Of a stretch of 32,134 bases of DNA, positions 2 to 32,134 are shown piece by piece. Where the stretch lies: the IMG/VR virus record IMGVR_UViG_3300034060_000806, positions 1 through 32,134 of that record. The stretch is one strand, 5' to 3'. How positions within the stretch are numbered: the first letter of the stretch is position 1; the number at the start of each line of letters is the position of its first letter. Made by a program: the position numbers and the translations under genes. The notes under the pieces are model-generated. The model was given only the letters and a program-made list of their open reading frames with translations. It had not been told where the DNA came from and did not search any database. Source of the stretch: a virus (Duplodnaviria > Caudoviricetes).

Positions 2-2272
2 CTCGCCACAGTGTTTGGACAGGTAAGTGCCGCCAACCGCATCATGGGCGACGACGTTCAATCGTTCCAAGAAGTTGGCGTCAATGCGTTAGCCATTCTC
101 GGCAACTCTTTCGGTGTCACTACTGCCGAAATGCGAGACATGATCTCAAAAGGGCTTATCCCGGCCAATCGGGCTTTGGACATTCTTTCAGACGGCATCC
201 TCAACGGAACCGACGGTGTCAACGGTGCGACTGTTGCATTTACTGGCACCATGGCTGGTCTTAGAAAGACATTGTCGGGTGCAGTCGGTGGCGTTGGGGC
301 TGCTGTTGCTCGACTTGGTGCAGCGTTCCTCACACCACTTAGCCCCGCCTTTATTAGTGCCGCTAATACAGCAACTTCCGCTTTGGACAAATTGGCTGAG
401 TATGCGAAGAAACTCGGCACGGTGCTGGCAAATAGCAAAGCAATGAAAATGTTTATTTCTTTTTTAGAAAAGATTCCCGACAAAATCGGACCTGTTCTTG
501 AAGGAATGAACTCTATGAAATCAACTCTTGCGCCTTTGATTGGCTTGATTGTTGCCATGGCCTCAACCAATGTTGCTGCTGCTTTTGGTCCGCTTGGTGC
601 CTTGATTCCAAAAATCAATCCTTTAGTCGGCATTCTGCTCGGTCTTGCCACCCAATCTGAACCGCTCCGTAAAGCATTCAAAGACTTGATGACCGCAATG
701 CAGCCGGTGATTCAATCCATGATCCAAGCGTTGATGCCAATTATGGATCAATTGGGGGTTTTGGTTTCAACGACTCTTGCCCCAGCATTAGTGCAATTGG
801 CTCCGCCGTTTGTTGAATTGCTGGCGGCTCTAATTCCCCTGCTTCCACCGCTTATTGATTTAGCGCAAGCAATTATCCCAATTTTGACAGACGCTTTGCT
901 AATTCTTGTAAATGAAGGCCTTGTGCCTGTAATTGAAAAACTTGTCCCTGTTTTGACGACATTTGCTAATTGGACTACAGGAATTCTTGAAAACAAAGAT
1001 GCGATTGAGATCCTGACACCGCTCGTTATCGGTCTTACGGGCGCTTTTGCTGGTTTCGAGACGGTTACCTTCGTCATTGAAACCATCACAGGAATCACTG
1101 GAGCGATTACCGGTCTGAACGCTGCGATTATCGCCAACCCCATCGGAGCCCTCATCGCAGTTGCGATTTACCTCGGAGTAGTCATTTTTCTGCTGTGGAC
1201 AAACTGGGACAAAGTTTGGGGTTGGATTATGGATCACAAGGCTTATGCCTTGATTATCGCGACTCTTCTCGGGCCAATAGCCGGAATCGTAGCAATCGTT
1301 GGAATTGTTAAATATCTGTGGACGAACTGGGACAAAATTTGGGGCTGGATCTCCGATAAAGCCATTTGGGCTTGGGAAACCGTCATCAAACCCACATGGG
1401 ATGCGATTGTTGGCTTTGTCACCGGAACTCTTGTTCCGATATTTATTTCCCTTTGGGGATATTTCCAAACGGTATGGAATGGCATTGCTGCTGTCGCCAC
1501 CTTTGCTTGGAACAGCATTTTGTTTCCGATTTTTAAGGGCATCCATACTTGGATCAAAAACAACTTGATCCCAGCGTCGATCACACTTTGGGAAACTTTT
1601 CAAATTGTTTGGGACGTCATCTGCAACGTAATAAGTTTCGCTTGGAACAACATCATTCAACCAATTTGGGACTCGATTCAGTGGTACATCGGAAACATTT
1701 TGGTACCAATGTTCAATCTCATTTCAACAGTTGTAAGCACAGTGTTTGGTGCTGTCGGAACTGTTATCAGTTGGGTTTGGAACAACGTCATCAGCCCGAC
1801 GTTTGATTGGATCAAGGGTGCGATTGGTACTTTGCTCGACGTATTCAACACGATTAAAGATGGAATCCAAACAGCGTTTAGTGCAGTTTTTGACGTCATT
1901 GTTACTCCGTTTAAATTGGCTTTCAATCTGATCGCCGACATATGGAATAACACGGTTGGAAAGTTGACCGTTAGCACTCCGGATATCCCGGGCACTGACT
2001 TCGGTGGCATTGATATCAAGATGCCAACAATTCCAAAATGGGAACATACCGGTGGTCTCGTTCAGGGCTCAATGATGTCGCAGAATGTTCCTGCAATGTT
2101 GCAAGCCGGTGAGTTGGTTGTTTCCCGAGCGCAATTGAAGGCTATTGAGCGGGGAACTGTCCCTGAGGTCGGTGGTAGTCAAGGTGTTGTCAATGTTTAT
2201 GTTTCGGAAACGAATGCGTCTCCTTATGACATTGGCAAAGAAATCTTGTGGAGTTTGAAGGTGGCTCGATGA
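2..2272 (+). CDS. Tape measure protein (5' truncated by window edge)
   Basis: Frame is open from the window start; long Ala/Leu/Ile-rich helical protein with regularly spaced Trp/Phe repeats; lies directly upstream of a Dit-like gene. Confidence 0.92.
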   Translation, partial: LATVFGQVSAANRIMGDDVQSFQEVGVNALAILGNSFGVTTAEMRDMISKGLIPANRALDILSDGILNGTDGVNGATVAFTGTMAGLRKTLSGAVGGVGAAVARLGAAFLTPLSPAFISAANTATSALDKLAEYAKKLGTVLANSKAMKMFISFLEKIPDKIGPVLEGMNSMKSTLAPLIGLIVAMASTNVAAAFGPLGALIPKINPLVGILLGLATQSEPLRKAFKDLMTAMQPVIQSMIQALMPIMDQLGVLVSTTLAPALVQLAPPFVELLAALIPLLPPLIDLAQAIIPILTDALLILVNEGLVPVIEKLVPVLTTFANWTTGILENKDAIEILTPLVIGLTGAFAGFETVTFVIETITGITGAITGLNAAIIANPIGALIAVAIYLGVVIFLLWTNWDKVWGWIMDHKAYALIIATLLGPIAGIVAIVGIVKYLWTNWDKIWGWISDKAIWAWETVIKPTWDAIVGFVTGTLVPIFISLWGYFQTVWNGIAAVATFAWNSILFPIFKGIHTWIKNNLIPASITLWETFQIVWDVICNVISFAWNNIIQPIWDSIQWYIGNILVPMFNLISTVVSTVFGAVGTVISWVWNNVISPTFDWIKGAIGTLLDVFNTIKDGIQTAFSAVFDVIVTPFKLAFNLIADIWNNTVGKLTVSTPDIPGTDFGGIDIKMPTIPKWEHTGGLVQGSMMSQNVPAMLQAGELVVSRAQLKAIERGTVPEVGGSQGVVNVYVSETNASPYDIGKEILWSLKVAR

Positions 2273-3111
2273 TTGATTGGCAGATGGATTACAACGGTTT
2301 GACGTTTGGGGCTTCGACGGTTTATGGCATTGAGTCGATCACGGGTTTGCATGATCTTCCCGAGGTTCGGACGTCGGATCGTGCCCGGGCTCGAACTCAC
2401 GGACAGTTTCAGGGCAGCGATTATTTGGGTGGCAGGGATATTGATGTTTCCGTGACGATTACTTCTAAGCATCCGTCGAATGCGATTTGGCAGGCTTTTT
2501 CTCAGGCTTTGGTTGCTGGTCAAGTTGACGAGTTGCCTTTGACGATTCAAGTTCCGGGTGTCGGTTTGGGTGGGGAAATTCAAGTTGGGGCGAGGGTCAG
2601 GAAACTGTCTTTGCCGATAAGCATGGATTATTACAAGGGTGTCGGTCGGGCGGAAGTGCAGTTTCATTGCACGGATCCTCGGATGTATTCGTCGACGTTG
2701 CAGAGCGTGAGTTTCAGTCAGGCGACCACTTCGGGCGGTTTGTCTTTTAATGCGACTTTCAACCTGTCGTTTGGTGGTGCTGCAACGGGTGGCACAGCAA
2801 TTTGCAATAACGCTGGCGAGTTCCCTTCTCCGTGGGAAGCAACCATCACTGGCCCTATTGTTGACCCTCGCATCGAAAACGTGAACACGGGTCAAATCAT
2901 TTATTTCACCGGCACTCTTGCTGCCGGAGAAACCCTTGTTGTCGGGACTCAGGACCGTACGGTTCTACTCAACGGCACGGCTTCCCGGTATTCGTGGATC
3001 CAACAGGGCACACAATGGTTTGACCTCGCCCCCGGAGATAACACTATGCGATTGGCTGGGGCCTCCGGCACTGGCACAATGGCCGTAAACTTTCGTTCTG
3101 CTTGGATCTAG
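2269..3111 (+). CDS. Distal tail protein (Dit-like)
   Basis: ATGA overlap with the TMP stop; motifs GRDIDV, FHCTDPRMYS, WFDLAPGDN and terminal FRSAWI are typical of siphovirus Dit. Confidence 0.85.
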   Translation: MIDWQMDYNGLTFGASTVYGIESITGLHDLPEVRTSDRARARTHGQFQGSDYLGGRDIDVSVTITSKHPSNAIWQAFSQALVAGQVDELPLTIQVPGVGLGGEIQVGARVRKLSLPISMDYYKGVGRAEVQFHCTDPRMYSSTLQSVSFSQATTSGGLSFNATFNLSFGGAATGGTAICNNAGEFPSPWEATITGPIVDPRIENVNTGQIIYFTGTLAAGETLVVGTQDRTVLLNGTASRYSWIQQGTQWFDLAPGDNTMRLAGASGTGTMAVNFRSAWI

Positions 3112-3120
3112 GAGATTCTG

Positions 3121-4215
3121 ATGACTATTCGTGCTACACCTACATTCGTTCAGGCTGGTTCTCATCCGGCCGAGGAAACCCGCCTCATGCTCGGCGGAAT
3201 GCTCGGTATGCCTCCGACCTCGTTTGCCGGTGGCGCTGCTGCCTCTAACCCTGCTCACGGGATCGTTACCGCCACTGATCTTGCTGTCACTCAAAACGGC
3301 ACGCCAAATATGACTGTGAACGTGGCCGCTGGCGGATGTTTCATCCGTGGCACCGCCTCGTTGAATCAGGGCGCTTACCATCTTTGGAACGATGCGACTG
3401 TCAACCTTGCTATTTCGCCTGCTGATGCAACAAACCCTCGCCGAGACTTAGTTATCGCTGTTGTTAGAGATGCCGCTTATTCAGGTGCTTCAAATGACGC
3501 TCGTCTAATTGTTGTTACGGGCACACCAGCGGCTAGTCCTGTGGATCCATCATTAGCGTCCCACCCTAATGCGTTGGTTTTGGCTCGTATCACCGTTGCT
3601 GCTGGCGACACGGCAATCAACACCGCCGACATTACGGACCTTCGACCGATCGCTGACCAGCGCGGCAAGATTCCGACGTTCAACACCTCGGCGCTCGCTA
3701 CTACTGCGATTCCTTCTCCGGTTGACGGTCAGGCGTACTACCTGAATCTGAACACGGACCAAGAGGGCCCGTATTTTTTCAACGGCACCAACTACCGTCG
3801 CCCGTGGAACCTGCCGTGGGGTGCCGTGAGTTCGCAAGTAAGCGTTGCGGGCGCGGGCTTTGTTTCAACTGTAGAAACCGTAATTTATTCGGGACCGTCA
3901 ACAACGTTTGTTGCTAACCGTCGCTACCGTTGGACTTTTCAAGTAACGCACGTTGGGCAAGTGGCGGGCGACTTGTTTGACATAAAGTTGCGAGCAAACA
4001 ACGCGTCCGGCACTTTGTACGACACTCAGCGTTTCGCAATTGTCGGGCCGATTTTTCAAGGCATTTCAACAATCTCAACTATTATTTCGCCCGGTTCAGT
4101 TACATTCACGCCGGTCGTTTGTTTTGTGAGAACCGTCGGTAGCGGCGGTTGCGGAACCGCAATGAGCAACTTTCACTGTATCGAGGACATCGGACCTTCG
4201 GGCGCTCCGACGTAA
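3121..4215 (+). CDS. Minor tail / receptor-binding protein
   Basis: AGGAG RBS; N-terminal half (PNMTVNVAAG, ADATNPRRDLV, LARITVAAG, ITDLR) resembles actinophage minor tail proteins; beta-rich C-terminus ends IEDIG. Confidence 0.75.
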   Translation: MTIRATPTFVQAGSHPAEETRLMLGGMLGMPPTSFAGGAAASNPAHGIVTATDLAVTQNGTPNMTVNVAAGGCFIRGTASLNQGAYHLWNDATVNLAISPADATNPRRDLVIAVVRDAAYSGASNDARLIVVTGTPAASPVDPSLASHPNALVLARITVAAGDTAINTADITDLRPIADQRGKIPTFNTSALATTAIPSPVDGQAYYLNLNTDQEGPYFFNGTNYRRPWNLPWGAVSSQVSVAGAGFVSTVETVIYSGPSTTFVANRRYRWTFQVTHVGQVAGDLFDIKLRANNASGTLYDTQRFAIVGPIFQGISTISTIISPGSVTFTPVVCFVRTVGSGGCGTAMSNFHCIEDIGPSGAPT

Positions 4216-4217
4216 TC

Positions 4218-5357
4218 GTGACCGAATATCGCTGCATCAGCATGGATTTGTTGACAGGAACTCGGATTGCCGAACTTCCGTTAACGGGTTTGTCCTACTC
4301 AAAAACGCTATCGGGGGCTGGTGAAGCCTCAGGTACGTTGTATTTGCCTCCACCAAACTCGGTCGCTAATCGAGCGTTAGCCGCTGACTGGAATAATGCG
4401 GTTGATGAATGTCGACGCCAGTTGGTTATTGAACGTGACGGTGTCGTCGTTTGGTCAGGGATCGTGTGGGCCTCTCCGTACAACGATGCAGATCAAACTC
4501 GTTCAATTAAATGCGGTGAGGATTGGTCATATTTTCGCAAACTGACGATGCCTTACAACTACACGTTTTCGTCGACGCCACAGATGGACATTGTTGATTC
4601 CATCATGTACCTCGCCCAGTTTTGGTCGCCAGCGAACGTGGGTGTCTCCGTTGTCAAAAACCTTGCTTCGGGTTACACGGACATCAATCGGGATCGTACT
4701 TACAGTCGAAACGAATTAAAGACTGTTGCTGATGCGATTGAACAGTTGGCTGGAGTTTCAAACGGTTTTGAATTTGCAATCGATTCGTCGTGGAGTTCAA
4801 CTGGCACATTGCAGAAAGTGTTGAATCTGCACTATCCGAGACGTGGCCGTTCTTACAACGAAACAGGTCATGTTTTTGAGTTGGGTCGAAATATCGTTTC
4901 TTTCACTTGGCCTTCTGATGGCACAAGAACTCACAACCGTGTTTGGGTTCAGGGACAAGGCGAAGGCGATTCTCAGTTAATTGGCCTTGCTGTCGATTCT
5001 TCACAAATTCAACCTTTGTCGTCGGGTGGTCCCGGCTATCCGTTGCTTGAAGAGGTGTATTCGGCCGGGGACATTTCAGTCCAAGAAACGGTTGATTTGA
5101 TTGCTTGGGCTCGGGTTCAGTACACGTCGACGCCTGTTACTTTGCCCGAGTTGACTGTCAGGGCTGATTTGGATCCGGGTTTGGGTGCTTACATTTGTGG
5201 GGATGCGTGCCGAGTCATCATAAATCCGAACACGAGCCCAAGGTTTCCTGATGGCCTTGATACCTATTATCGAATTGTTGGTTACAGTGTTTCCGTTGAC
5301 GACATGGGTCAGGAAGACGTCAAGTTGGTTTTAGGACCGGAGTTTATTTATGCCTGA
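4218..5357 (+). CDS. Minor tail / baseplate hub protein (ReqiPepy6 Gp37-like)
   Basis: GTG start just after the upstream stop; AELPL, VVWSGIVW, YPLLE and GDACRV motifs; position in the tail module. Confidence 0.75.
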   Translation: MTEYRCISMDLLTGTRIAELPLTGLSYSKTLSGAGEASGTLYLPPPNSVANRALAADWNNAVDECRRQLVIERDGVVVWSGIVWASPYNDADQTRSIKCGEDWSYFRKLTMPYNYTFSSTPQMDIVDSIMYLAQFWSPANVGVSVVKNLASGYTDINRDRTYSRNELKTVADAIEQLAGVSNGFEFAIDSSWSSTGTLQKVLNLHYPRRGRSYNETGHVFELGRNIVSFTWPSDGTRTHNRVWVQGQGEGDSQLIGLAVDSSQIQPLSSGGPGYPLLEEVYSAGDISVQETVDLIAWARVQYTSTPVTLPELTVRADLDPGLGAYICGDACRVIINPNTSPRFPDGLDTYYRIVGYSVSVDDMGQEDVKLVLGPEFIYA

Positions 5358-5967
5358 TGTGCCTAAGCCCGAAGACCTCGGAACGTATGTCGCCGATCTT
5401 GAACGGCGAATCAAAATCCTTGAATCGGCCCCCAAATTGCAAGATTCGTCAGTGACTAACGGCACTTTGACTGTCAAAGATGCGTCTAACGTCGTCAAAA
5501 CTCAGTTTGGACTTTTGTCTGACGGAACATACGGCCTCGCTGTTCGTACACCCCTCCCCGGAGATGCGCTGGTCAACGTGAATAACACGTTGTTCCCGGT
5601 AATCGGTAGTTACGCTCCGACTCAAAACGTGACGACTACGTCGTATGCTTTGTTGCCGTCAGGTCCGAGTGTCACCGCAACTATTGGAGCATCGGGTCGT
5701 GCCCTTGTGACCGCAAGTTCGGACATCGGGTTACTGAACTCCAACTCAACTGCTTCAATCGGTTTTCGTGTTGATGGCGTTGACCGTGGGTCGGGTTTTG
5801 TCAGCGTCACCGATCCAGCATCACTTATCCGCATCGCATCGTCAGTCGGCAGACCGGTATTGGTTACCGGACTCCCTGCCGGTGCTAACACGTTTGCTTG
5901 CATTGCGCGTATGTCATCGGGTACAGGGCAATATTCGAACACAACGCTTATCGTGCAGCCGTTCTAA
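5350..5967 (+). CDS. Minor tail protein
   Basis: Overlaps the previous stop; N-terminal coiled coil (DLERRIKILE) followed by a beta-rich domain. Confidence 0.65.
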   Translation: MPDVPKPEDLGTYVADLERRIKILESAPKLQDSSVTNGTLTVKDASNVVKTQFGLLSDGTYGLAVRTPLPGDALVNVNNTLFPVIGSYAPTQNVTTTSYALLPSGPSVTATIGASGRALVTASSDIGLLNSNSTASIGFRVDGVDRGSGFVSVTDPASLIRIASSVGRPVLVTGLPAGANTFACIARMSSGTGQYSNTTLIVQPF

Positions 5968-6018
5968 TGCGATTTAGGTTTGATGACTTTGGGTTAAATC
6001 GCTAATAGCCTGCAACCA

Positions 6019-6396
6019 ATGTTTGCCATAAACCTGCTCCCCGACAACATTGAAAAAATGTACATCCCCGAACTCGTTGCTTTGGCGGCAGGAATCGGCG
6101 CTGTAATGGCAATTCTCAACTTTTTGGTCAAACCCCTTTACCGGGGTATCCGTAGACTCATCAATGCGATTGACGTAGTTTCGGAACGGATCTCCGAAGT
6201 CCCCGTTCATGAGGATCGCATCGACAGCATCGAGGCACAGATAAAAGCCATTCATGATGCACTGGAGCCCACGAACGGTGACCGGAGATCCATCTCAGAT
6301 CGTCTTGACACTGTTAAGTCTCAGACCATTGCAAACACAAACAAGATCGACGACCTGAGCGCAAAGGTCGAAAAACTTTGGAAGGAATCAGCATGA
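6019..6396 (+). CDS. Membrane protein with coiled coil (lysis-cassette type)
   Basis: One transmembrane segment followed by a coiled coil; precedes the holin-like gene; start may be 6058. Confidence 0.55.
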   Translation: MFAINLLPDNIEKMYIPELVALAAGIGAVMAILNFLVKPLYRGIRRLINAIDVVSERISEVPVHEDRIDSIEAQIKAIHDALEPTNGDRRSISDRLDTVKSQTIANTNKIDDLSAKVEKLWKESA

Positions 6397-6677
6397 CTGA
6401 TTATGGCCGTTCACTCATCCGCACCATTGTCCCCCTGCTTGTCGGTTCGCTAGTTGCTTGGCTCGCTACCCGTGGCGTTTCTGTAGATCAGGCTCTCATC
6501 TTGCCTGCCGCCGATGCGCTTTTCACTGGCGTTTACTATGGCATTGTTCGTTGGCTTGAAACGAAGTCTCCGAAGGCTGGTTGGCTGCTCGGCATTCCCG
6601 GCGCTCCCTCTTATGCGATTAGTTCTCCCGCAGGAATTGTTCCGGTTTCAGGTTCGGACGCTCCAACACCAAAATAA
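6393..6677 (+). CDS. Putative holin
   Basis: 94 aa with two hydrophobic segments; IRTIVP, YYGIVRWLE and GWLLG pattern resembles actinophage holins; ATGA overlap. Confidence 0.65.
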   Translation: MTDYGRSLIRTIVPLLVGSLVAWLATRGVSVDQALILPAADALFTGVYYGIVRWLETKSPKAGWLLGIPGAPSYAISSPAGIVPVSGSDAPTPK

Positions 6678-6679
6678 AT

Positions 6680-6720
6680 ACACAACCATGGTTGTGTCTG
6701 TCTGTTGACTCTGCTACCTT
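6680..6720 (+). promoter_or_regulatory. SigA-like promoter overlapped by an 18-bp perfect palindrome
   Basis: ACACAACCATGGTTGTGT at 6680-6697; TTGTGT-17 bp-TACCTT with TG extension. Confidence 0.6.
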
Positions 6721-6749
6721 TGCTGGCAACTACCACAAAGGAGTGAGAG

Positions 6750-7340
6750 ATGGCGTTTGATCTTTCCGATTACATCACGGTGCCCCAACGGGTCGCCATG
6801 TTTTATGAGCAGAACCCTGACGGACGGATCGTTTCGTCCGAACCAGTGATTGTCACCATTGACAACCGCACGTTCATTCAGGTCACAACCAAGGTCTACC
6901 GATCTCCCGACGATGCGGTTCCATGTCAGGCAACGGCCTATGAGCCATTTCCCGGCAAAACTCCGTACACCCGGGACTCGGAAATGATGAACGCTGAGAC
7001 CAGTGCCATTGGTCGTGCCATTGCTGCTGCCGGTATCGCAGTCAACCGGTCCCTTGCATCGGCAAATGAGGTTCGAGCCCGAGTCGAAGACCGTGGCGAA
7101 CCCAAGCCAAAAACAAAATCGGCTGACAGTTTCGTCAATGGCCTTGTCGAACGGATGACAGCATTGCCCGAAGCCAACCGACGTAAGTGCAAAGACTTAT
7201 TTGTCAAGAAGTTTGGTAAGCCCGTGGATCTTTCGAGTGACGACTACGACGCCGCCGATGCGTTTGTTACTTACTGGGAAACCATCGCTGCCCAACTTCC
7301 CGGCGCTCAAATCGTGGAAGATCCGGAGCAGTCCGAGTAG
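6750..7340 (+). CDS. Putative ssDNA-annealing protein (Rad52/Sak-like)
   Basis: AAGGAG RBS; YITVPQRV..F..P.GRI and NAETSAIGRA motifs; first gene of the replication module. Confidence 0.6.
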   Translation: MAFDLSDYITVPQRVAMFYEQNPDGRIVSSEPVIVTIDNRTFIQVTTKVYRSPDDAVPCQATAYEPFPGKTPYTRDSEMMNAETSAIGRAIAAAGIAVNRSLASANEVRARVEDRGEPKPKTKSADSFVNGLVERMTALPEANRRKCKDLFVKKFGKPVDLSSDDYDAADAFVTYWETIAAQLPGAQIVEDPEQSE

Positions 7341-7350
7341 GTTCGAAAAC

Positions 7351-7389
7351 GAGAAGAGCCCGGGACCGAGAACCCGGGCTCAACTTCTC
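7351..7389 (+). terminator. Intergenic stem-loop
   Basis: GAGCCCGGG (7356-64) / CCCGGGCTC (7373-81), extended by GAGAA/TTCTC; no U-tract. Confidence 0.4.
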
Positions 7390-7413
7390 CAACTACCACG
7401 AAGGAGATATGCG

Positions 7414-8232: not shown

Positions 8233-8723
8233 TGGAAGCAAAACAGGCCGCTTCACTCGTCGCCCTCATTGCTGCTGCTCACCCTCAGTGGCCTGCCACT
8301 CCGGAAACCATCGCGGTTTACCGGCAAATGCTTTCGGACGTGACTTATGAACAAGCCCTATCCGCAGTCCAAGACCTCATCGCAACAGAAGACCGTTGGC
8401 CGTCAGTTGCCTCCATACGCCGCCGTATCGCCCTCCAAGCGGGATTCCTACCTCCTTCCCCGTCAAACGCTTGGCAAGAGGTCTCCGATGCGATCAGCAA
8501 TGGAGGTCGGTCGACCCTCCCTGAGTTCTCGCACCCTGCGGTCAAAGCGGCGGTTACTGCTATCGGCTGGTGGGAACTTTGCAGCACGACGAATCCGTCA
8601 GCGACCCGAGCCCATTTCTTCCGATTCTACGAAGACGCTTCTGAAGAAGAGACTCGAAGGGCTTTGGGAATGGGAAGTCGGCATCTTGCTCTCGGAGGAC
8701 GAACCGAAATAGGTGCAGCATGA
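8232..8723 (+). CDS. Helicase loader/inhibitor (G39P-like N-terminal domain)
   Basis: Follows the initiator; LIAAAHP, MLSDVTYEQA..AV, WPSVASIR pattern. Confidence 0.6.
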   Translation: MEAKQAASLVALIAAAHPQWPATPETIAVYRQMLSDVTYEQALSAVQDLIATEDRWPSVASIRRRIALQAGFLPPSPSNAWQEVSDAISNGGRSTLPEFSHPAVKAAVTAIGWWELCSTTNPSATRAHFFRFYEDASEEETRRALGMGSRHLALGGRTEIGAA

Positions 8724-11353: not shown

Positions 11354-11367
11354 GAAAGGAACCTCAG

Positions 11368-21247: not shown

Positions 21248-21254
21248 TAACACC

Positions 21255-24436: not shown

Positions 24437-24551
24437 ACCCGTGGAGCGTCAGGGGATCCCCCATCTGCCCTGACGACTTCGACGGTCCAAGCGCAGGCCG
24501 TCTCAGTTTGCACGGGTTACTCCTTTCCCCTGAACTGAACCATATGCGTTA

Positions 24552-24592
24552 GAAGGCCCTCGGGAACCGCCTCCCGGGGGCCTTCGCTATTT
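24552..24592 (+). terminator. Intrinsic terminator-like hairpin
   Basis: 14-bp stem GAAGGCCCTCGGGA / TCCCGGGGGCCTTC followed by GCTATTT. Confidence 0.65.
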
Positions 24593-24617
24593 GCTGTTGG
24601 TGTTGTATCTTCCGTGC

Positions 24618-25484
24618 ATGACTGATTTCCATGCAGAACTTGTGGCCGATCTCAATGCGATTGGTGTTGAGGTTGAAAAGGCGAAGATGTCTCGCTCCGA
24701 GGCCGGTCGTGTAGCGGCGAACGCCCGTTGGGGAAACAAGGGTGGCGCTCCAAAGATGGTTGACTGGCGTTCGGCAGCAGGGATCTCTGCCGCTGAGCAA
24801 AAGTCCAATGCCCGCTCGAAGTCGGCGATGCAAGGCGCACGCACTCGGGCTCAGAACAAAGAAGCAAACACCCGCACCCCGGGGAGCATCCAAGCCGAAA
24901 TGGAACGCGCTGGCGTCCCCAAGAAAACGATTGATGCGATCACCAAAAACCCTCTCGGTTCTGCCTCAGCGAAAGCAACGGCGGCTCACATCAAACGAGT
25001 AAAAGACGTCAACGGTCTGTCTTCGAAGCAAAAGGCCAAGTACAACGAAAAAATGGATATGGCGACGCCCGGGATGAGCCCGGACATGAAGCATCAAGAC
25101 GCCATTACATACGCTTTAGATGCAAAGGCGGCTAGACCACGCGCTACTGCTGCCCGTGCCGCAGCATCCGCACGATTCAAAACAGTCGCCTCTCAAACTT
25201 CAGGCAAAAAAGTATTTACTTCTTCAACAGTTCCCAACCCGGGCATGAGGGCACCAGTATCCGCCCACAAAGAGGCTATTGCCGCGGCTGAATATCATTT
25301 AGAGAACTCGAAGTTAACTGGCGCTCAAACAAAGAAACTCAACAACACTGTCAGACGTTCAAAGGATGCGATTGATCGGCTTGAACGTCCCGAATACAAC
25401 GCCTTAAAAGACCGTGCATTAAGAGATATGCCAAGCCGAAACAACGGAGGAAGTCGTGGCACGGGATACCTTGTCGGAAGATGA
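24618..25484 (+). CDS. Basic Ala/Lys-rich protein sharing its leader and AANARWGN tag with the giant protein
   Basis: TATCTT lies 6 nt before the ATG (leaderless-type); MTDFHAELVADLNAIGVEVEKAKMSRSEAGRVAANARWGNKG. Confidence 0.7.
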   Translation: MTDFHAELVADLNAIGVEVEKAKMSRSEAGRVAANARWGNKGGAPKMVDWRSAAGISAAEQKSNARSKSAMQGARTRAQNKEANTRTPGSIQAEMERAGVPKKTIDAITKNPLGSASAKATAAHIKRVKDVNGLSSKQKAKYNEKMDMATPGMSPDMKHQDAITYALDAKAARPRATAARAAASARFKTVASQTSGKKVFTSSTVPNPGMRAPVSAHKEAIAAAEYHLENSKLTGAQTKKLNNTVRRSKDAIDRLERPEYNALKDRALRDMPSRNNGGSRGTGYLVGR

Positions 25485-25497
25485 GGTCACGGAGCCA

Positions 25498-28400
25498 ATG
25501 GCTAAAATTTTTCACGAACGGTTGATCGCTGACCTTGAAGCCATGGGTTATGCGATTGGCCCTGTCACTAAAGCCGACACTTACACACCCCCCGAGGGTG
25601 TGCAGTCTGCTGCCCGACGGGCCCTGAAACTCATTGCTGACGGTCACGCTGGTGACGGTTTTACTGATGTCGGCCGTAAACGTGCCTCAGACCTTGCTGC
25701 TGGCCGTTCAGTGAGCCTCAATACGGTGAAACGTATGCACTCCTATTTCGCCCGTCATGCCGTCGATAAGCAAGGCAAAGACTGGGACAACGCTGAGAAA
25801 CCATCGCCGGGGAAGGTTGCTTGGCTCGCTTGGGGTGGCGATGCCGGTAAGTCTTGGGCTGATGCGATTGTCGATCGTGACAACGTGACTAAGGCGTACA
25901 AACGGAAATATGCCACTCGCGAAGAGGCTGCACGCGCCGCCGCCAACGCAAGGTGGGGCAATCGAACGCCTGATGTACCTGAGGTCAAAGAAAAGCCGAC
26001 CAAAAAAGTCGATCCCGTCAAAGAGGCTTACCGTGCTTTCCAAGCGGAAGCCAAAAAGAAAAAGAACCTTGAAAAGACTTTGGAACTCGAAAAGGTTTGG
26101 CTGAATGCTGTCCGTGATAATGCTCCACCTAAGGGTGACTGGCGTGAATGCGATTCAATCAAAGAAGCAAAAGCACAGTTCTACGGTCAAGGTTGGATGA
26201 CCGAAGTTCATTTCGGGAAATTGTCTGTTCCGATGGTCAACGAAGTTTGCAAGACATGGAACGAACTCGGAACGAAATATCCGGAAGTTGCTGCTTACGT
26301 TGAAGTCCTTGGTGGGCATAGCGGTTTGCGTGATGCAGGGGAATTGCCGGTAAAAAAGTTTTCTGCCTTAGGCACCGCCTTTTACGGTCCTCGCACGATT
26401 GCCTTAAATGACTCTTATTCGCGTGACCAATACGAAGATTTTGCTCAACGTGCCGCAGCGACGGGGTTTCACCCTCCGAGAACCGGAGCGAAGGGTGACG
26501 GCGTCAGGTCCGTTCTTGTCCATGAGTTTGGGCACATGGTCGGTCGGAAAACGGGTTTGTCACAAACAGAGGCTGCTATCAAAGAAGTGCGTTCAAGTCG
26601 CCCTGCTGGCATTAGAGAAAAAACTGTAAAAGAATTCACCAAAACCAATCTTTCTGAATACGCCACTAGAAATTCTGACGAAGCCTTTGCTGAGGCCTTC
26701 ACCGAATACCACATGAGCCCTAACCCTCGGCCTCTTGCTACCGCAATCGTTGAACGCTCATTTGATGCGATTGGTAAGACCGAGTGGAAACGAGACACTG
26801 TCGCCAAGGCGTACAAACGGAAGTACGCAACTCGGGAGGAAGCGGCTCGGGCGGCCGCTAATGCTCGCTGGGGTAACCGGACGCCGAAGGTTGATGCTCC
26901 AGCCGAACCCGCCGGACCGGTAATCGAGCCGTGGGTCGATCAAAAATCCGCTGCCGCTGTCGACAGGGAATTCAATCGACGTTGGGGCAATCGCACATTG
27001 ATGCGTTTGACTGGCCTTTCACCCGAAGCCGCTAACGGCTCTGCCGAGGCAATCAACGAATTACTGACCCTGTATCCGGACACGACGTTGCATTTGGTTG
27101 GCACTCAAACCGGTATTTCACAGATGATTAAATCAGGTACCTATCCGCCCGGAACTCCTGAGAGTGTCAAGTCCCTTGCATCTCGGGGCCGTTACCCGAA
27201 AATGAATTTAAGTGAGGGTGGCGATTACTCCCCCCAGTTGCAATTCATTCGAATCAATAAGAACAATCACTCGTCCGATGGTTACGGAAGTGTTTCGACG
27301 CGACTCTCCGAGGAAACAGGTTGGTATACGCCAACTGGTTTTCCAGTTGGCGCAGGTCAACCTGAAGGCATTCGTCACGCAGCAAAACGATCGATGGTTC
27401 ATGAGTTCGGCCACGCGATTGACTTACACCCAAAAAGGAATTCTCTTCCAAGTGATTTCAGCAATTCAAACAATCCAATTACTAAAGCAACCCGAGAAAT
27501 CACTGGCGCTCCGGCAAGTTCCGCTGCGGCAAACAAAGCGGTTATCGAAACCAATATTGGAACCTACGCCGCCACCAATGCAAAAGAATTGTTTGCTGAG
27601 ACTTTCACCGAATACCACATGAACCCTGCGGCCCGTCCGTTGTCTGTTGATTTCGTGAAGTTTCGGATGGGTGAAATTGGGGTGCCTCTTGCTGCTCCGT
27701 CAACGCTTGGCACGATTGCTAAGGCTTACAAGCGGAAATATGGATCTCGGGCCGAGGCTGCCCGGGCCGCAGCGAACGCTCGCTGGGGAAACAAGGGCTC
27801 TGCAACACAGGAAACTTCCGCAGCCGATGATGCGGTTTACAATCCGTCACCCAAAGAGATGTTGGCCGGAAAAACTGCAAGCGGAAGAAAACTTAGAAAC
27901 ACGTTTTCCCAAACGCCGGTCAACGGTTACAACATAGAAACCGATCCTCGACCTTTCGGTTCAGCACCGGAACATTTGAAACGTGGCGCTCTTCTACTTC
28001 AAGGCACCGGACAGGCTTTATGGCAGGTCACTTCCGTCAAGGGAGACGTCTTGCGCTCAAAGCCGGTTTACGACAAATACGGACGCAAGATTTACAAGCC
28101 CGGGACTTCACAGTCATTGCTTCGTCAGTATTGGGATAATGTCACGGCCGTGAAAGGAAACGCTGCCGATCTTCCCGATCAAGACGATGCGATCGCTAAG
28201 GCGTACAAGCGGAAGTACGCGACTCGTGCTGAGGCTGCACGCGCGGCCGCGAATGCACGTTGGGGAAACAAAGGCTCAACTTCTACTGCTGCTCCTGCCG
28301 AGCCCAAGCCACAAATTACTAAAGAGACCGACAAGGTTCTCCGCCAGTTTGCCCAAGCCGGATATGCCGCACAAACCGGTATGGGCATGAGGCAACAAAA

Positions 28401-30294
28401 AGGCCAATTGCACGTCGGTGTTGACGACACATCTGTGACGATCACGGATCTTTATGCGATGCAAAAGTTTCCCCGGTCGGATCCCCGAGCCAAGGCTTTG
28501 TTGGCTTATCAACCTGAAGGCAAATCAAGTTTCACTGTCAAAATCGGCAAAGGAGGCAAAGTCGGTTTGCATCCGGAGCAAAACGGTCCTGATATGAACT
28601 CTTCAACAATTGATGAACTGACCAAAAAGTCCCGTGTCGACATTGGTGGCTTCAAACCAATCCCCACAATTGAGGGCAGCAAACAACAGTACGTTGCTAC
28701 CGAAGTCAAAAACCCTAAGACAAAAGAAACTGCAACTGTTTATTTGCGACGGGATCAGTACGACGGGATTCTCGCCAGTCAACCTCCCGGAACCGAATTG
28801 AAAGTCGGTTTTGGAGAAAATTATCGAGGCAAATCCCGGATACTTTCTGTTGTCGCTATCAATAATGGCGAGAAAGTCGCTGCCGTCATGGCTATGGGCC
28901 CAAATTTTGATCCCACTACTGGGGGCGATGGAAGGCTGACGGTGAAGAAGGTTGTCTCTGTTCACGATATGAGGGCACCTGTCGAAGACGATGCGATTAC
29001 CAAGTTTGTTTCTTCAAAGCGTTCTGCTGCCGGTCGTAAGGCTGCCGAGGCTCGATGGGGTAAGCGTCTAAAGAAATTCCCGAAAGCATTGGGACGGATG
29101 ACGCCACGGCAGCGAGCAAGTCTGATGCTCAGTGCCGATAAGCCTGCAAAGGTCAAATTCGTGGGCCCTGAAGGCAAGACAGAAGAGGCGCTCCGTGACG
29201 ACGCCGGAAATGTTGTAACTGAGCGCATGAACCCTTCGACCGAGTACAAGCGACGTCTTTACGGGTCGGATTCTTGGGTTCAAACGGGCAAGGGCCCGGT
29301 GCTTGGCCCGAAGTTGAAGCGCAAGAAGAAGGTTCAGGGAAACGCTGTTCGAGAACTTGCACGGGTGCGGTTTGCCGATGCTCCTGTTCAAAAGGCTGGT
29401 GATCGTTCTGCTGCTGGTCGTAAGGCTGCCGAGGCTCGATGGGCAGGTCATCAAAAAAAACAAACTCAATCATCACCGCCTGCTGACAAACCAATTTTCA
29501 GCAGAGAAGAACACGCTATTGCTATTGCCTTGGTTGAACGAGTAGCGATTGAAGAACCGGCCCTGACGAAACAAATGGAAGATTTCGCCGAGGAATTTGG
29601 TGGTGAACTGACCGGTTTGCAGAACCGATTGAAGAAGTCGGGCTCTTTGGCTCGTAAAATCCATATGGATGCGATTGAAAAGAGTCTTTCTCCGGAGGCT
29701 GCCGCTGCTCAAATAAAAGATGCTGTCCGGTACACAATGATTCTGCCTGACACTAACTACGGTTTGTCGGGCCAAGCAATTGTTGATAGGCTCAGAGCCG
29801 AAGGAAATGACGTAAAAGTCAAAAATACTTGGTCCCCTGATTCTGAATACAAGGGGATTAACTTGCAGGTGTACAACAAGAAAAAAGGATTTTGGTCTGA
29901 ACTGCAACTGCATACGCCGCAATCATTTGCTACAAAAAACGAAACTCACAAGATTTATGAGTTAGAGCGGGTTGAAAAAGATCCCAAGAAAAAAGCGTTG
30001 TACACAGCGCAGATGAAAGCGGCCTCCGGCAGTTTGCGTATTCCGCCCCGGGCCGAAGTCATCAAATCAAAGGAGGACAGCATGAAAGAAATTTGGTGGA
30101 AACGGGTCTCAGACGATGGGGAAACTGTTTACAGCGTGTGGCACGCTCACGGCCCTGAATCGATGATGGAAAAGAATTATGCCGGTGAATGGGTCGACGC
30201 TTCCGAGCAGTACTTCACTCCGTTCGAAGAGACCGATTTCATTGAAATTTCAGAAGACGAAGTCGAAGCCGTCTTGAAAGACTTGACGGCCTAA
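25498..30294 (+). CDS. Giant multidomain (polyvalent-type) protein: conserved phage N-domain, two HEXXH zincins, unknown domains, RelA/SpoT-like nucleotidyltransferase, acidic tail
   Basis: About 1598 aa; HEFGH at 26521 and 27400, each followed by YA..N..E.FAE.F; RLKK..SLARKI, DAVRYT, YKGIN, ELQLHT, HKIYE; six repeated basic linkers. Confidence 0.85.
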   Translation: MAKIFHERLIADLEAMGYAIGPVTKADTYTPPEGVQSAARRALKLIADGHAGDGFTDVGRKRASDLAAGRSVSLNTVKRMHSYFARHAVDKQGKDWDNAEKPSPGKVAWLAWGGDAGKSWADAIVDRDNVTKAYKRKYATREEAARAAANARWGNRTPDVPEVKEKPTKKVDPVKEAYRAFQAEAKKKKNLEKTLELEKVWLNAVRDNAPPKGDWRECDSIKEAKAQFYGQGWMTEVHFGKLSVPMVNEVCKTWNELGTKYPEVAAYVEVLGGHSGLRDAGELPVKKFSALGTAFYGPRTIALNDSYSRDQYEDFAQRAAATGFHPPRTGAKGDGVRSVLVHEFGHMVGRKTGLSQTEAAIKEVRSSRPAGIREKTVKEFTKTNLSEYATRNSDEAFAEAFTEYHMSPNPRPLATAIVERSFDAIGKTEWKRDTVAKAYKRKYATREEAARAAANARWGNRTPKVDAPAEPAGPVIEPWVDQKSAAAVDREFNRRWGNRTLMRLTGLSPEAANGSAEAINELLTLYPDTTLHLVGTQTGISQMIKSGTYPPGTPESVKSLASRGRYPKMNLSEGGDYSPQLQFIRINKNNHSSDGYGSVSTRLSEETGWYTPTGFPVGAGQPEGIRHAAKRSMVHEFGHAIDLHPKRNSLPSDFSNSNNPITKATREITGAPASSAAANKAVIETNIGTYAATNAKELFAETFTEYHMNPAARPLSVDFVKFRMGEIGVPLAAPSTLGTIAKAYKRKYGSRAEAARAAANARWGNKGSATQETSAADDAVYNPSPKEMLAGKTASGRKLRNTFSQTPVNGYNIETDPRPFGSAPEHLKRGALLLQGTGQALWQVTSVKGDVLRSKPVYDKYGRKIYKPGTSQSLLRQYWDNVTAVKGNAADLPDQDDAIAKAYKRKYATRAEAARAAANARWGNKGSTSTAAPAEPKPQITKETDKVLRQFAQAGYAAQTGMGMRQQKGQLHVGVDDTSVTITDLYAMQKFPRSDPRAKALLAYQPEGKSSFTVKIGKGGKVGLHPEQNGPDMNSSTIDELTKKSRVDIGGFKPIPTIEGSKQQYVATEVKNPKTKETATVYLRRDQYDGILASQPPGTELKVGFGENYRGKSRILSVVAINNGEKVAAVMAMGPNFDPTTGGDGRLTVKKVVSVHDMRAPVEDDAITKFVSSKRSAAGRKAAEARWGKRLKKFPKALGRMTPRQRASLMLSADKPAKVKFVGPEGKTEEALRDDAGNVVTERMNPSTEYKRRLYGSDSWVQTGKGPVLGPKLKRKKKVQGNAVRELARVRFADAPVQKAGDRSAAGRKAAEARWAGHQKKQTQSSPPADKPIFSREEHAIAIALVERVAIEEPALTKQMEDFAEEFGGELTGLQNRLKKSGSLARKIHMDAIEKSLSPEAAAAQIKDAVRYTMILPDTNYGLSGQAIVDRLRAEGNDVKVKNTWSPDSEYKGINLQVYNKKKGFWSELQLHTPQSFATKNETHKIYELERVEKDPKKKALYTAQMKAASGSLRIPPRAEVIKSKEDSMKEIWWKRVSDDGETVYSVWHAHGPESMMEKNYAGEWVDASEQYFTPFEETDFIEISEDEVEAVLKDLTA
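25885..28269 (+). repeat. Four 26-aa repeats [VI]xKAYKRKYxxRxEAARAAANARWGN
   Basis: At 25885-25962, 26800-26877, 27715-27792 and 28192-28269; the copies use different synonymous codons. Confidence 0.95.
29020..29443 (+). repeat. 40-bp near-identical direct repeat encoding RSAAGRKAAEARW
   Basis: 29020-29059 versus 29404-29443, one mismatch. Confidence 0.9.
30082..30294 (+). CDS. Putative in-frame internally initiated 70-aa acidic protein (immunity-like)
   Basis: AAGGAGG (30070-76) lies 5 nt before an in-frame ATG immediately after the RelA/SpoT-like domain. Confidence 0.55.
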   Translation: MKEIWWKRVSDDGETVYSVWHAHGPESMMEKNYAGEWVDASEQYFTPFEETDFIEISEDEVEAVLKDLTA

Positions 30295-30351
30295 CCGGGG
30301 TAGGGTATCTTTGTGGTGCGGGGAGCGGGGGCTCCTCCGGAAAGGGACATC
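30283..30351 (+). promoter_or_regulatory. Promoter cassette G
   Basis: TTGACG-17-TATCTT with CCTAACCGGGGTAG in the spacer; hairpin GGGGAGC-GGGG-GCTCCTC; GGAAAGG. Confidence 0.8.
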
Positions 30352-31098
30352 ATGTACAAGCGTTTCGCAGGGCTCTCAGCACCGAAACGATGCGTTTCCA
30401 CTGCCTGCTACCGCTGCGGCGGCACCGGCTACGTCCACCCATGGGGCACCTGTTTCCGCTGCGGTGGTGCCCAAGTCGACCCGAGCCACAAGGATTTCGG
30501 TTACCCGCAAACGTGGACCGACGCCGAAATCGAAGAATGGGACCGGGCTCGTCGGGCCAAGAACGAAAAGGCCCGGGTCGCCCGGGAGGAACGTCTCGCC
30601 GTCAAGAAAGCCGCCAAGTTCGCTGAGAACCTCGCCAAGTGCCCCGAGTTAGCCGACATCAAAGATTACGGCGGAATCCTCGGAGACCTTCGGGAAAAGG
30701 CTGAAAAGTACGATCTCAGCCCCGCTCAGTTTGAACTGGTCGCCAAACTGGTGGCTCAGGACAAGGCTTATGCGATTGCCAAGGCCGCTCAGGTCGAAGC
30801 CGACGCTCACCTCATCTACATCGGCGAGGTCGGCGAGAAGATCACGATCACTGGCACAGTGAAGGTCGCCAAGGCAATTGACACTCAGTTCGGTCTCAGT
30901 CGCCTCCTGATCGTCGCTGACACCGACGGCAACCTCATCAAAGCCTTCACCACCGCCCAGTTCGTTTGGGATCTCGAAGCCGGTGACGAGGTCACGCTGA
31001 TCGCCACGGTCAAGGCCCATGAGGTCTACGAGGATGTCAAGCAGACGGTCATCACCCGGCCGAAACTGATTGAACATAAGCAACTGGTGGATGCCTGA
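30352..31098 (+). CDS. Zn-finger (CxxCxGxG) plus C-terminal OB-fold-like protein
   Basis: CYRCGGTG..CFRCGG; C-terminal IGEVGEKITITGTV..GDEVTLIATVKAH..KQTVITRPK. Confidence 0.7.
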   Translation: MYKRFAGLSAPKRCVSTACYRCGGTGYVHPWGTCFRCGGAQVDPSHKDFGYPQTWTDAEIEEWDRARRAKNEKARVAREERLAVKKAAKFAENLAKCPELADIKDYGGILGDLREKAEKYDLSPAQFELVAKLVAQDKAYAIAKAAQVEADAHLIYIGEVGEKITITGTVKVAKAIDTQFGLSRLLIVADTDGNLIKAFTTAQFVWDLEAGDEVTLIATVKAHEVYEDVKQTVITRPKLIEHKQLVDA

Positions 31099-31204
31099 TG
31101 CCACAAGCCTCGTATCGGGCCCTGTATGCGTTTCTCTCGGATTCGCTTGGGGCCCGACGGGCAATTCCCCTGTTGCCCCGGTCGTTTCGACCACGGCCCC
31201 GTCA

Positions 31205-31269
31205 CACACCTAACCGTGGTGTGGTACACTTGTGTCGGGAGGAAAGGGATCCTCCCCGAAAGGAACCTC
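31205..31269 (+). promoter_or_regulatory. Promoter cassette H
   Basis: CACACC-TAACCGT-GGTGTGG-TACACT; hairpin GGGAGGA-AAGGGA-TCCTCCC; GAAAGGA. Confidence 0.85.
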
Positions 31270-31512
31270 ATGGCAATGACACCCGAACAACGTAAGGCAG
31301 CAGCCGCCAAGGCCGTCGCCACTCGCCAAGCCCGCAAGGCAGCAGCCGCCGCCGATGCGATTGGCAAGATCAAACAACGTGCCGGATTCTCCGCCTACGC
31401 CTGCCCCCAATGCCGCAACACGGTTTACGTCAAATCCGCCAAGGCCGACGTTTACCACCGCTGCCCATCGTTCGGCCTCAAATGGGTCGACTACATCCTG
31501 ATCTCCGAATGA
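31270..31512 (+). CDS. Small basic protein with a Zn-ribbon-like C-terminus
   Basis: ATG after cassette H; Ala/Lys helix followed by CPQC..HRC. Confidence 0.65.
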   Translation: MAMTPEQRKAAAAKAVATRQARKAAAAADAIGKIKQRAGFSAYACPQCRNTVYVKSAKADVYHRCPSFGLKWVDYILISE

Positions 31513-31523
31513 AAGGAAACCTG

Positions 31524-31832
31524 ATGCGATTAACTCGCTTCAAACGCAAGTACATACTTCGCACCGAGTTCGATGCCGATGGGACATGGACGCCAGTGAC
31601 GGTCGACGAAGTGTTCGGCCGCAACCCTCAGATCACCGACGCTCACGCTGCTTTCGCTAAGTACGCAGTGGTTGACGAATGGAACCAGTACGGCCCTACC
31701 GAGATCCGGGGCCGCACCTACCGTCTAGCCGTGTACAAGAAGCGGGGCTCTCGGATGCGATTGATTCAAACTGAGCAGATCCCCCCGACTCGCCCGGTTG
31801 ACTTGACTAACGTCGAATGGCCCAAGCCCTAA
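31524..31832 (+). CDS. Hypothetical protein
   Basis: GAAAGGA RBS at 31511. Confidence 0.6.
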   Translation: MRLTRFKRKYILRTEFDADGTWTPVTVDEVFGRNPQITDAHAAFAKYAVVDEWNQYGPTEIRGRTYRLAVYKKRGSRMRLIQTEQIPPTRPVDLTNVEWPKP

Positions 31833-31886
31833 CCCCGGTGTGGTACCGTTGGAGTGAAGGGCAGGGGCTCTTCGGAAAGGAACAGC
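31827..31886 (+). promoter_or_regulatory. Promoter cassette I
   Basis: CCCTAACCCC-GGTGTGG-TACCGT; hairpin GAAGGGC-AGGG-GCTCTTC; GGAAAGGA. Confidence 0.8.
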
Positions 31887-32134
31887 ATGACCGAATGGCA
31901 AGCATCACCAAAGGTCAGAGAATTCAAGGCCCAACGAACGTCACTTCGAAAGAACACGCCTCGGCCCGTCACTCAGCGAGTTCGTTCTTTCTCCGGAATC
32001 GTGTGGCGTAAAGTTGACAGTCAAGTTGAGCAAGGGCGTTGCCCTCACGCCCACTCCAAGCCGTCAAGCGCAACAAAATGCGCCGAAGCCCTTGCCAAAA
32101 GGCTGAACCGGGCAGCCAAAAGGAGCAACAGTGA
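31887..32134 (+). CDS. Hypothetical basic protein (3' truncated)
   Basis: ATG after the cassette I SD; frame is open to the window end (MTEWQASPKV). Confidence 0.6.
   Translation, partial: MTEWQASPKVREFKAQRTSLRKNTPRPVTQRVRSFSGIVWRKVDSQVEQGRCPHAHSKPSSATKCAEALAKRLNRAAKRSNS

Follow-up and report, generated by a model that had tools for sequence, protein, structure and literature searches.

The stretch of DNA analysed here (the window; 32,134 nucleotides, positions 1..32134 of IMG/VR record IMGVR_UViG_3300034060_000806) is part of a siphophage-type genome and carries the two elements under study: (i) an array of the short word ATGCG, read on the + strand along almost the entire window, and (ii) a repeated peptide (tag A) in two of the encoded proteins. 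All 50 called genes lie on the + strand and include those for a tape measure and tail proteins, a lambda-O-like initiator and its loader, an Rpf-like transglycosylase, three proteins resembling the terminase small subunit (TerS), the terminase large subunit (TerL) and a multi-module protein of 1598 amino acids (aa). Overlaps identical between the window and record G001, and between G001 and G177, extend the genome to the portal, a 2276-aa MuF protein and an XkdF protease. The listed holders of the phage are mostly lake-water metagenomes, with no RNA data set among them, and contigs from four public lake runs cover 29–30 of the 30 bins of positions 6700–25500 without listed letter differences.

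A polarised and evenly spaced array of ATGCG

84..32082, + strand: array of 103 ATGCG cores, 92 of them ATGCG(A/T), with the consensus G-ATGCG-A-T-T-G; 96 of the 103 are intragenic, median gap 282 bp
998, 1400, 4731, 8005, 8142, 8736, 9229, 14546, 15756, 17034, 17893, 18526, 19161, 20309, 25365, 25861, 26764, 29668, 31354, 31754, + strand: starts of the copies of GATGCGATTG (exact match)

Exact counting yielded 103 ATGCG on the + and 18 on the – strand, 49 and 3 for ATGCGAT, and 20 and 0 for GATGCGATTG, i.e., about one word per 300 bases (about 3 per kb), nearly all in one orientation. A preliminary description, made from the letters alone, had listed the same 20 positions and estimated about 49/3 and about 100/20 for the two shorter words; every listed copy proved to be exact. 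The 103 sites read (G62/A24/T15/C2)-ATGCG-(A72/T20)-T73-T69-G51, and thus consist of an invariant 5-bp core with graded flanks, informative over 9–10 bp and no further out. They are spread evenly across early and late genes, with 93 % being intragenic in a window of which genes make up 94 %, and occupy all three reading frames as already noticed from the letters: 68 encode Asp/Asn/Tyr/His-Ala, 19 Met-Arg and 9 any residue followed by Cys, the remaining 7 lying outside the gene calls.

Upon permutation of synonymous codons within genes (1000 runs), the observed numbers of ATGCG (96 vs. 38.4 ± 3.8), ATGCGAT (47 vs. 5.2) and GATGCGATTG (20 vs. 1.1) were never reached. Dicodon-preserving shuffling (300 runs) likewise never reached ATGCGAT (47 vs. 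23.3) or GATGCGATTG (20 vs. 5.2), but largely fixes the 5-mer itself (96 vs. 91.5; reached in 2 runs), so that the excess survives this check, proposed in the preliminary description, for words of at least six bases. The encoded peptides are themselves bent by the motif (Asp-Ala-Ile, DAI, 29 vs. 3.9; Met-Arg-Leu, MRL, 9 vs. 0.9), in line with the earlier view that a peptide constraint does not suffice. A codon, dicodon or peptide artefact is rejected, since the excess survives the shuffles and the spacing of sites departs from a null of synonymous opportunities (see below). Tandem peptide repeats account for false matches of the pattern scans in G007, G008, G009 and L165, not for the window. 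Origin by C-to-T decay of CGCG was also considered: CGCG is depleted (27 vs. 101) and some sites of G179 differ from the related G011 by a C-to-T-type change of this word, yet such decay cannot yield the excess or the spacing.

The gaps between ATGCG sites have a coefficient of variation (CV) of 0.55 as compared to 0.99 ± 0.10 for random placement (0/5000 simulations), the lowest among 84 five-mers with 60–110 copies; a fixed period or helical phase was not found. Evenness is even more pronounced for TGCG on the + strand (CV 0.49, lowest among 860 words), and TGCG not preceded by A is depleted on this strand (34 vs. 62) and kept off ATGCG (3 vs. 11.9 within 50 bp). The full GATGCGATTG taken alone lacks regular spacing (CV 0.95); the local regularity seen earlier therefore holds for the core and not for the 10-mer. 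Compared with random use of the 259 places that could synonymously encode ATGCG, the observed CV is 0.53 vs. 0.97 (0/10000), and a single gap is shorter than 80 bp where 18.8 are expected. The farther such a place lies from its closest neighbouring site, the more often it is used: 0/43 below 40 bp, 2/41 at 40–80 bp, 14/47 at 80–120 bp, 30/56 at 120–200 bp and 50/72 beyond 200 bp. The shuffles, this spacing and the polarity in inverted genes of relatives (see below) bear out what had been proposed before: the array is real and under selection as a DNA-level signal.

Arrays in related phages

Relatives were fetched with the following gene:
13358..14980, + strand: terminase large subunit, 53–55 % identity to Arthrobacter phages Laroye and Ottawa

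Motif A, here counted as ATGCGA on the major/other strand, forms arrays in G003 (22/3), G005 (25/0), G006 (23/1), G175 (66/1), G176 (43/0), G177 (29/1), G178 (34/2), G179 (49/7), G183 (30/0), G468 (60/3), G473 (121/5) and G474 (128/10). A second word with the same properties, TG(C/G)TGA(A/T) (motif B), is found in G004 (146 sites, CV 0.69), G181, G182, L250, L255, L280 and L282, while fourteen other related records have neither motif. Two further loci, L039 and L279, display a skew of TG(C/G)TGA(A/T) (15/1 and 17/2) with no peptide tag in view; the related G019 has only a mild excess.

Close site pairs are rare throughout. Gaps below 80 bp make up 5 of 524 for ATGCG(A/T) in 11 related records (Poisson expectation 95) and 0 of 260 for motif B (Poisson expectation 51). 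As an approximation, the background density in relatives that use another system would place a neighbour within 80 bp of about 8 % (A) and 6 % (B) of sites; since background rates alone would supply these neighbours, close pairs appear to be removed, beyond a mere lack of selection. Individual sites turn over: the window and G003 have 7 of 29 in common, G177 and G006 share 5 of 18, and G004 and G182 1 of 36, as compared to 39 of 44 in the near-identical G002. Because the array persists while orthologous sites are mostly lost, selection is judged from these comparisons to target density, direction and spacing rather than position. Conservation of orthologous sites, the absence of which the preliminary description had taken as refuting, is therefore judged the wrong test.

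Since all called genes of the window lie on one strand, its sequence by itself cannot tell whether polarity follows the genome or the genes. The 14 inverted genes in six motif-B records (leaving out L255, a duplicate of G004) carry 20 sites on the genome strand vs. 2 on the gene strand. Throughout the complete genome G473 (motif A), polarity is uniform (194 vs. 11) without any switch, and each full 5-kb bin holds 11–22 sites. Reversed copies are fewer than the codon null predicts in G004 (6 vs. 24) and in records of the X clade; restriction by Type III/ISP enzymes was considered as a source of polarity and covers only this reverse-strand purge.

A transcription-coupled signal, i.e., stoperator-like repressor sites or ops-like elongation-factor elements, would be conceivable for the motif-A genomes with nearly all genes on the motif strand (the inverted genes of G474 being equivocal, 5 vs. 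3), and in B the inverted cassette begins at the TerL stop, so that antisense read-through could be imagined. Such a signal is nevertheless very improbable in view of the 20 vs. 2 sites on the genome strand of inverted B genes, including sites past a terminator-like hairpin (recognised by eye), and of the intragenic location of 93 % of the sites, evenly over early and late genes. Moreover, no repressor or integrase match was obtained in the window or in the 39 of 79 open reading frames (ORFs) scanned of G473.

Polarity also has to be viewed in the light of the replication genes:
7414..8723, + strand: lambda-O-like initiator and helicase-loader genes (family matches)

Sites for lagging-strand priming or primosome assembly, used by host DnaB/DnaG in unidirectional or rolling-circle replication, would agree with the uniform polarity of G473, the independence of gene direction in B, the coverage-type spacing, the turnover of sites and the presence of lambda-O/P-like genes. 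However, no primase match was found in the window (where none of the 50 called genes matches a polymerase either), among 78 proteins of relatives or in the 39 of 79 ORFs of G473, G174 shares the replication module and lacks an array, candidate hosts show no skew, and priming sites would not be expected to avoid close pairs or to be linked to the peptide tags described below. DnaG-type primases are moreover described to recognise a trinucleotide (PMC6163395). Primase sites, one of the functions suggested earlier, are thus improbable.

Pattern scans of IMG/VR for motif A yielded, among the matches listed, 123 loci of at least 4 kb that were examined and at least 15 that passed a density filter. 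Of the latter, 10 were evenly spread and all belonged to this actinophage family, the other 5 being clustered or weak. This confinement to one family (at least 10 loci among the 123 examined), at GC contents of 47–61 %, bears on a host-read oriented signal amplified by the phage, such as a Chi-like helicase-nuclease stop or a KOPS-like loading site. The polarity would suit such a signal, as would the purging of reversed copies from B and X records and the leading-strand skew of TGGTGA in candidate hosts (z 6.0); motif B presumably is similar to the core of enterobacterial Chi, TGGTG. Leading-strand skew is, however, absent for ATGCGA (z –0.9), which also lacks a clear enrichment, and low for TGCTGA (z 1.5) in 800 kb of candidate hosts, taken as the three genomes best matching the phage transglycosylase (p12), from which the true hosts may differ. 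The highest host density of ATGCGATTG is 47 per Mb (301 genomes plus 5 picked) vs. 871 in the window, and no enrichment near the phage density was detected in 151 (10-mer) and 301 (9-mer) sampled Actinomycetota genomes. These tallies include genomes flagged as unpublished (G030, G058, G065, G037, G295, G184, G345, G394, G228, G406, G200, G321, G260, G435, G265); no claim depends on any single one. Thus, the Chi/KOPS-like host signals envisaged in the preliminary description are improbable as well. In other loci, L502–L541 (G213, G444, G369), GGGGAG displays a KOPS-like skew on the inferred leading strand that is independent of gene direction (z 7.9).

Peptide tags co-varying with the motif

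24618..25484, + strand: p46, 288 aa, no family match, starting with one tag-A peptide; predicted virion cargo
24657..24758, + strand: tag A copy 1 (EKAKMSRSEAGRVAANARWG) in p46, by sequence comparison
25498..30294, + strand: p47, 1598-aa polyvalent-type protein with zincin-like and head-morphogenesis family matches, modules under six tag-A peptides
25879..25980, + strand: tag A copy 2, p47
26794..26895, + strand: tag A copy 3, p47
27712..27813, + strand: tag A copy 4, p47; residues 13–28 of the 34-aa piece modelled as a single helix (mean predicted local distance difference test score, pLDDT, 71)
28189..28290, + strand: tag A copy 5, p47
28984..29085, + strand: tag A copy 6 (RSAAGRKAAEARW), p47
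29368..29469, + strand: tag A copy 7, p47

Tag A, RS(E/A)A(G/A)R(Y/K/A)AAxxRW (typically RSEAGRYAAxxRW; R, A, A, A, R and W being invariant), heads the modules of polyvalent proteins. Motif-B records instead carry tag B, KGDYxGHPFRGNQW (core GHPFRGNQ), and 10 of the 14 motif-negative records a His-rich tag, HDQxxH. The tagged modules have median lengths of 276 aa (A), 286 aa (B) and 241 aa (His). Their cargo domains, encoded beside portal and capsid genes, comprise MuF, ADP-ribosyltransferase, zincin, zeta-kinase, GNAT and XkdF/S78 protease; a MuF domain is missing from many of the tagged proteins. On these sequence features the tagged cargo is assigned to the class of phage polyvalent proteins. 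The tags are internal and repeated and located after the presumed cut, such that they would remain on the cargo.

The structure model of tag A is a single 16-residue helix, which may resemble the basic region of bZIP proteins. Tag A matches 445 protein clusters, and the helix sequence also occurs in initiator-like phage proteins belonging to the DUF1376 and Lin1244 families. Two small proteins of the window (16400–16822 and 31261–31512, both +) contain Ala/Lys/Arg-rich stretches loosely like tag A. Among cultured phages, tag A has no match and tag B one real match, in an annotated internal head protein of Xanthomonas phage Rb1 (L910:16802-20467) encoded near a DarA-like gene and bearing one HPFRGNQ tag; tags A, B and the His-rich tag are all absent from three cultured relatives, over 50 kb each.

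Tag and motif co-vary. Wherever the cargo region of a motif-A lineage is visible, tag A is present, with 7 copies in the window and, by looser regular expressions, 6 in G006, 12 in G176, 8 each in G177 and G179, 4 each in G183 and G468, 13 in G469 and 1 in G470. It is absent from the 14 motif-negative records and from G180. Tag B is present in 6 of 7 motif-B records (the exception, L280, comprises 5.5 kb) and in none of the 14 negatives. A survey of 242 loci of at least 6 kb, which are not independent of each other, gave motif A for 10/10 loci with tag A only, motif B for 7/7 with tag B only and for the one locus with both tags, and no motif for 14/14 with the His-rich tag; 198 loci had neither tag nor motif and 12 a motif without visible tag. 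G180 (L481–L483) combines an excess of GGGATC (178/51; 158 where the codon null gives 32) with a variant of the His-type tag, KHPGH..DQSVHGNG, and may possibly represent a third pair of tag and motif, although weakly spaced and with a GATC-containing word. For His-tag phages, the top words contain GATC or are due to avoidance of AGCT; no such word is both evenly spaced and polarised.

An out-of-sample scan of IMG/VR by tag-A codons returned at least 203 stretches, 80 of which were fetched and represent 45 distinct loci. Contigs with two or more copies of tag A, some of them near copies of known records, carried an array in 11 of 12 cases (ATGCGA at 1.36–2.56 per kb, on the tag strand). Among the 7 family loci with one visible tag, 3 had a clear array, L718 was borderline, L721 too short, and L719 and L746 had none. 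In phages without array, a tag-A peptide was also encountered at the head of a C-terminal extension of Mu-type portal proteins (L720:7569-9686, L767:6468-8510). The variant word ATGGGA was considered as a motif of such one-tag phages and dismissed: it is skewed 14/3 in L720 and does not rank among the words most in excess of the codon null.

Close relatives differ in tag and motif together: G174, with a capsid 81 % identical to that of G004, has His-rich tags and no motif B, and G011, with a capsid 80 % identical to that of G179, has neither tag A nor motif A. On a portal tree of 46 rows, the combination of tag A and motif A requires 3 changes, and its monophyly is rejected (approximately unbiased, AU, test; p-AU 7e-28). 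In complete G473, the sole ORFs matching at least 3 positive lineages and at most 1 of the 14 negatives are three tag-bearing ORFs. Likewise, whole-protein and segment comparisons revealed no protein family or 100-aa segment tracking motif A or B other than the tag-bearing modules, with most records being incomplete and ORFs below 35–50 aa uncalled. TerS, TerL, small helix-turn-helix (HTH) protein, initiator, portal, capsid, MuF and protease were each considered as reader of the motif, and none groups by it. Thus, the TerS-like or HTH readers envisaged in the preliminary description are disfavoured by sequences that fail to track the motif. The idea of oriented sites for an ejected protein or for basic repeat proteins fares better: the basic repeat corresponds to the tag co-varying with the motif and is the best fit among the candidates, its binding being putative.

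It is also conceivable that the tag is a capsid-targeting or cut-here label like that of phage T4, and that the motif is read by a separate phage protein co-inherited with the cargo cassette, e.g., in genome organisation or packaging. Tags following hydrophobic-X-Lys, an encoded XkdF/S78 protease, His-tagged cargo of similar kind without array, few independent contrasts and the incomplete records with small ORFs uncalled would be compatible with it. This alternative is unlikely, if the least so of those considered: only the tag-bearing modules track the motif, neither portal, capsid, TerS, TerL, MuF, protease nor small HTH protein groups by it, and two unrelated tags are each paired with their own motif.

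The window further encodes enzymes that could act on strand-specific nicking or base-modification sites, i.e., an HNH protein (8720–9163), a GP88-like protein (9669–10457) or a TerS fusion (11932–12918), and asymmetric one-strand nick consensuses are known from T5-like phages. None of these genes tracks the motif, however, and GP88 is also encoded in five motif-negative records. C-to-T decay at a methylated site cannot account for 38 copies of ATGCGATT or 29 of DAI, and graded flanks and a spacing floor are atypical of methyltransferase sites. Modification or nick sites, suggested on first inspection, are therefore as improbable as a transcription signal. The GP88-family gene itself (9669–10457, +) is found in motif-bearing and motif-free relatives. 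The TerS fusion lies within three tandem TerS-like genes (11591–13371, +), the middle one with about 180 extra residues without Pfam match.

Two further features of the window are noted. An intergenic repeat of about 49 nucleotides beginning with CACACCTAACC is present in seven + copies (14993, 16337, 16881, 19183, 30286, 31205, 31824) upstream of small genes and looks like a promoter cassette; one contig jumps 524 bp, from 16360 to 16885, i.e., between two copies. The window is also devoid of AGCT, CCWGG, TCTGG and CTGCAG; CCAGA is absent from the identical record G001 as well, and AGCT is missing from 18/18 related records compared, yet present in lineage Z.

Proposed role and comparison with known systems

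That the tag reads the motif in some way, be it in packaging or in cis action on the DNA after entry, appears rather probable from the co-variation. More specifically, with a probability of about one half, the motif would represent an oriented, spaced lattice of putative tag-binding sites by which the DNA, acting as a tow-line, carries the modules into the cell. Slightly more tentative is the complete scheme of a two-part delivery code, in which a tag of about 15 residues on each protease-released effector module and the genome-wide lattice, inscribed in coding DNA at the expense of altered residues, would allow the chromosome to tow dozens of anti-host enzymes through the tail in single file, with at least two orthogonal tag/site pairs replacing each other within the family.

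For polyvalent proteins, packaging and injection have been predicted (PMC5512222). In the scheme proposed here, tagged proteins would enter the procapsid, where the XkdF/S78 head protease would cut the modules at the lysine before each tag, leaving the tag as N-terminus of each module. The basic helix of each tag would then bind one ATGCG(A/T)TT site. During infection, modules would leave the head hooked to the DNA, one by one and in a single direction. The bound tag would fix the direction of its module on the DNA, so that reversed sites would be unused and purged in some lineages. In the narrow exit channel, two modules attached less than about 80 bp apart would collide, such that sites closer than about 80–100 bp would be removed. 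Mean spacing would stay near the length of one extended module: at about 0.35 nm per residue extended and 0.34 nm per base pair of DNA, the median of 276 aa corresponds to about 280–300 bp, the median gaps being 282–335 bp. Polarity, spacing floor, evenness, turnover and the tag link would all be accounted for by this towing of modules; no rival explains the spacing floor and the tag link.

Several observations weigh against delivery by tag-binding sites. Independent pairs, drawn on 40 portal rows (six omitted for lack of a cargo region), are few: A agrees in 3/3 and B in 1/1, with a sign test p of 0.25 and significance unreachable. None of 26 single-match loci from unrelated phages carries an array, including Mu-type portal fusions with a good tag, nor do 40 kb of Rb1 despite its HPFRGNQ tag. 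G476 has 4 tags and a weak array (ATGCG(A/T) 27 vs. 9), and the tagged L746 has ATGCGA 3 vs. 7. Since His-tagged cargo (241-aa modules) has no detectable array, arrays are unneeded for cargo delivery in general, and the match of lengths may be a coincidence. For motif A, the inverted-gene test on 9 minor-strand ORFs of G474 gave 5 sites following the genome vs. 3 following the gene, the inverted block being nearly empty of sites; moreover, neither the window (TCGCAT, 6 vs. 6.1) nor G179 shows a purge of the reverse strand. The hydrophobic-X-Lys context of the tags (48/49) was scored without a control set, and comparison with solved structures returned no credible match for tags A and B, which are unrelated to each other in sequence.

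Literature searches returned no description of such an array or of the tags (five tag strings, 0 papers), though the supplements of PMC5512222 may list such repeats. An array with a floor of about 80 bp and a sequence that switches between sister phages apparently is undescribed, and the DNA lattice belongs to no known family tested. DNA uptake sequences, Chi, KOPS and HIP1 are likewise short words over-represented in coding DNA; they turn over and influence the choice of codons and peptides, with Chi and KOPS also being polarised. They are, however, signals of host chromosomes, whereas the array is confined to one phage family as far as the scans reach, is missing from candidate hosts, has a spacing floor and switches together with the tag. 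DNA uptake sequences and HIP1 occur on both strands or are palindromic, in contrast to the non-palindromic word found here (10-mer 20/0).

Stoperators of the cluster A mycobacteriophages L5/Bxb1, regarded as the nearest precedent in the preliminary description, are more than 20 asymmetric 13-mers in promoters and short intergenic regions, oriented with transcription and bound by the repressor (PMC9283540). Both systems distribute many asymmetric oriented sites across an actinobacterial phage genome. The present sites nevertheless depart from this precedent in length (5–9 bp) and location (93 % intragenic), as well as in number (about 200 per genome), even spacing and, for B, orientation with the genome.

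If the proposed reading were true, phage genomes would contain an extra layer of information that constrains protein sequence, the repeated header peptides on polyvalent cargo would be explained, and very small sequence-specific DNA-binding modules would be gained. The question of how internal phage proteins leave together with the DNA is reduced to two short peptides (tags A and B) vs. two DNA words, GATGCGATTG and TGCTGATC, with predicted cross-specificity.

The capsid targeting sequence (CTS) of T4 internal proteins is N-terminal and removed by the prohead protease. P1 Dar and T4 internal proteins resemble the tagged cargo in being packaged into the head and co-ejected with the DNA, and the CTS is a short conserved peptide on diverse cargo (PMC12810830, PMC3012670). 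The CTS differs in directing proteins to the scaffolding core, and the accessible part of PMC3012670 describes no sequence-specific DNA sites. How internal proteins such as P1 Dar are co-released with the DNA is stated to be unexplained in the 2026 P1 structure paper (PMC12810830). Among the structural proteins examined here, none co-varied with the tag type. Polyvalent and MuF-fused effectors are loaded via MuF or portal fusion (PMC5512222), and the targeting of SPP1 gp7 proceeds via the portal (PMC6316719). The tagged proteins belong to the same kind of effector, with enzymatic domains encoded in the head region; as far as the accessible parts of these papers extend, a repeated header peptide or a genome-wide DNA array is not described there, whereas here the type of tag predicts the motif.

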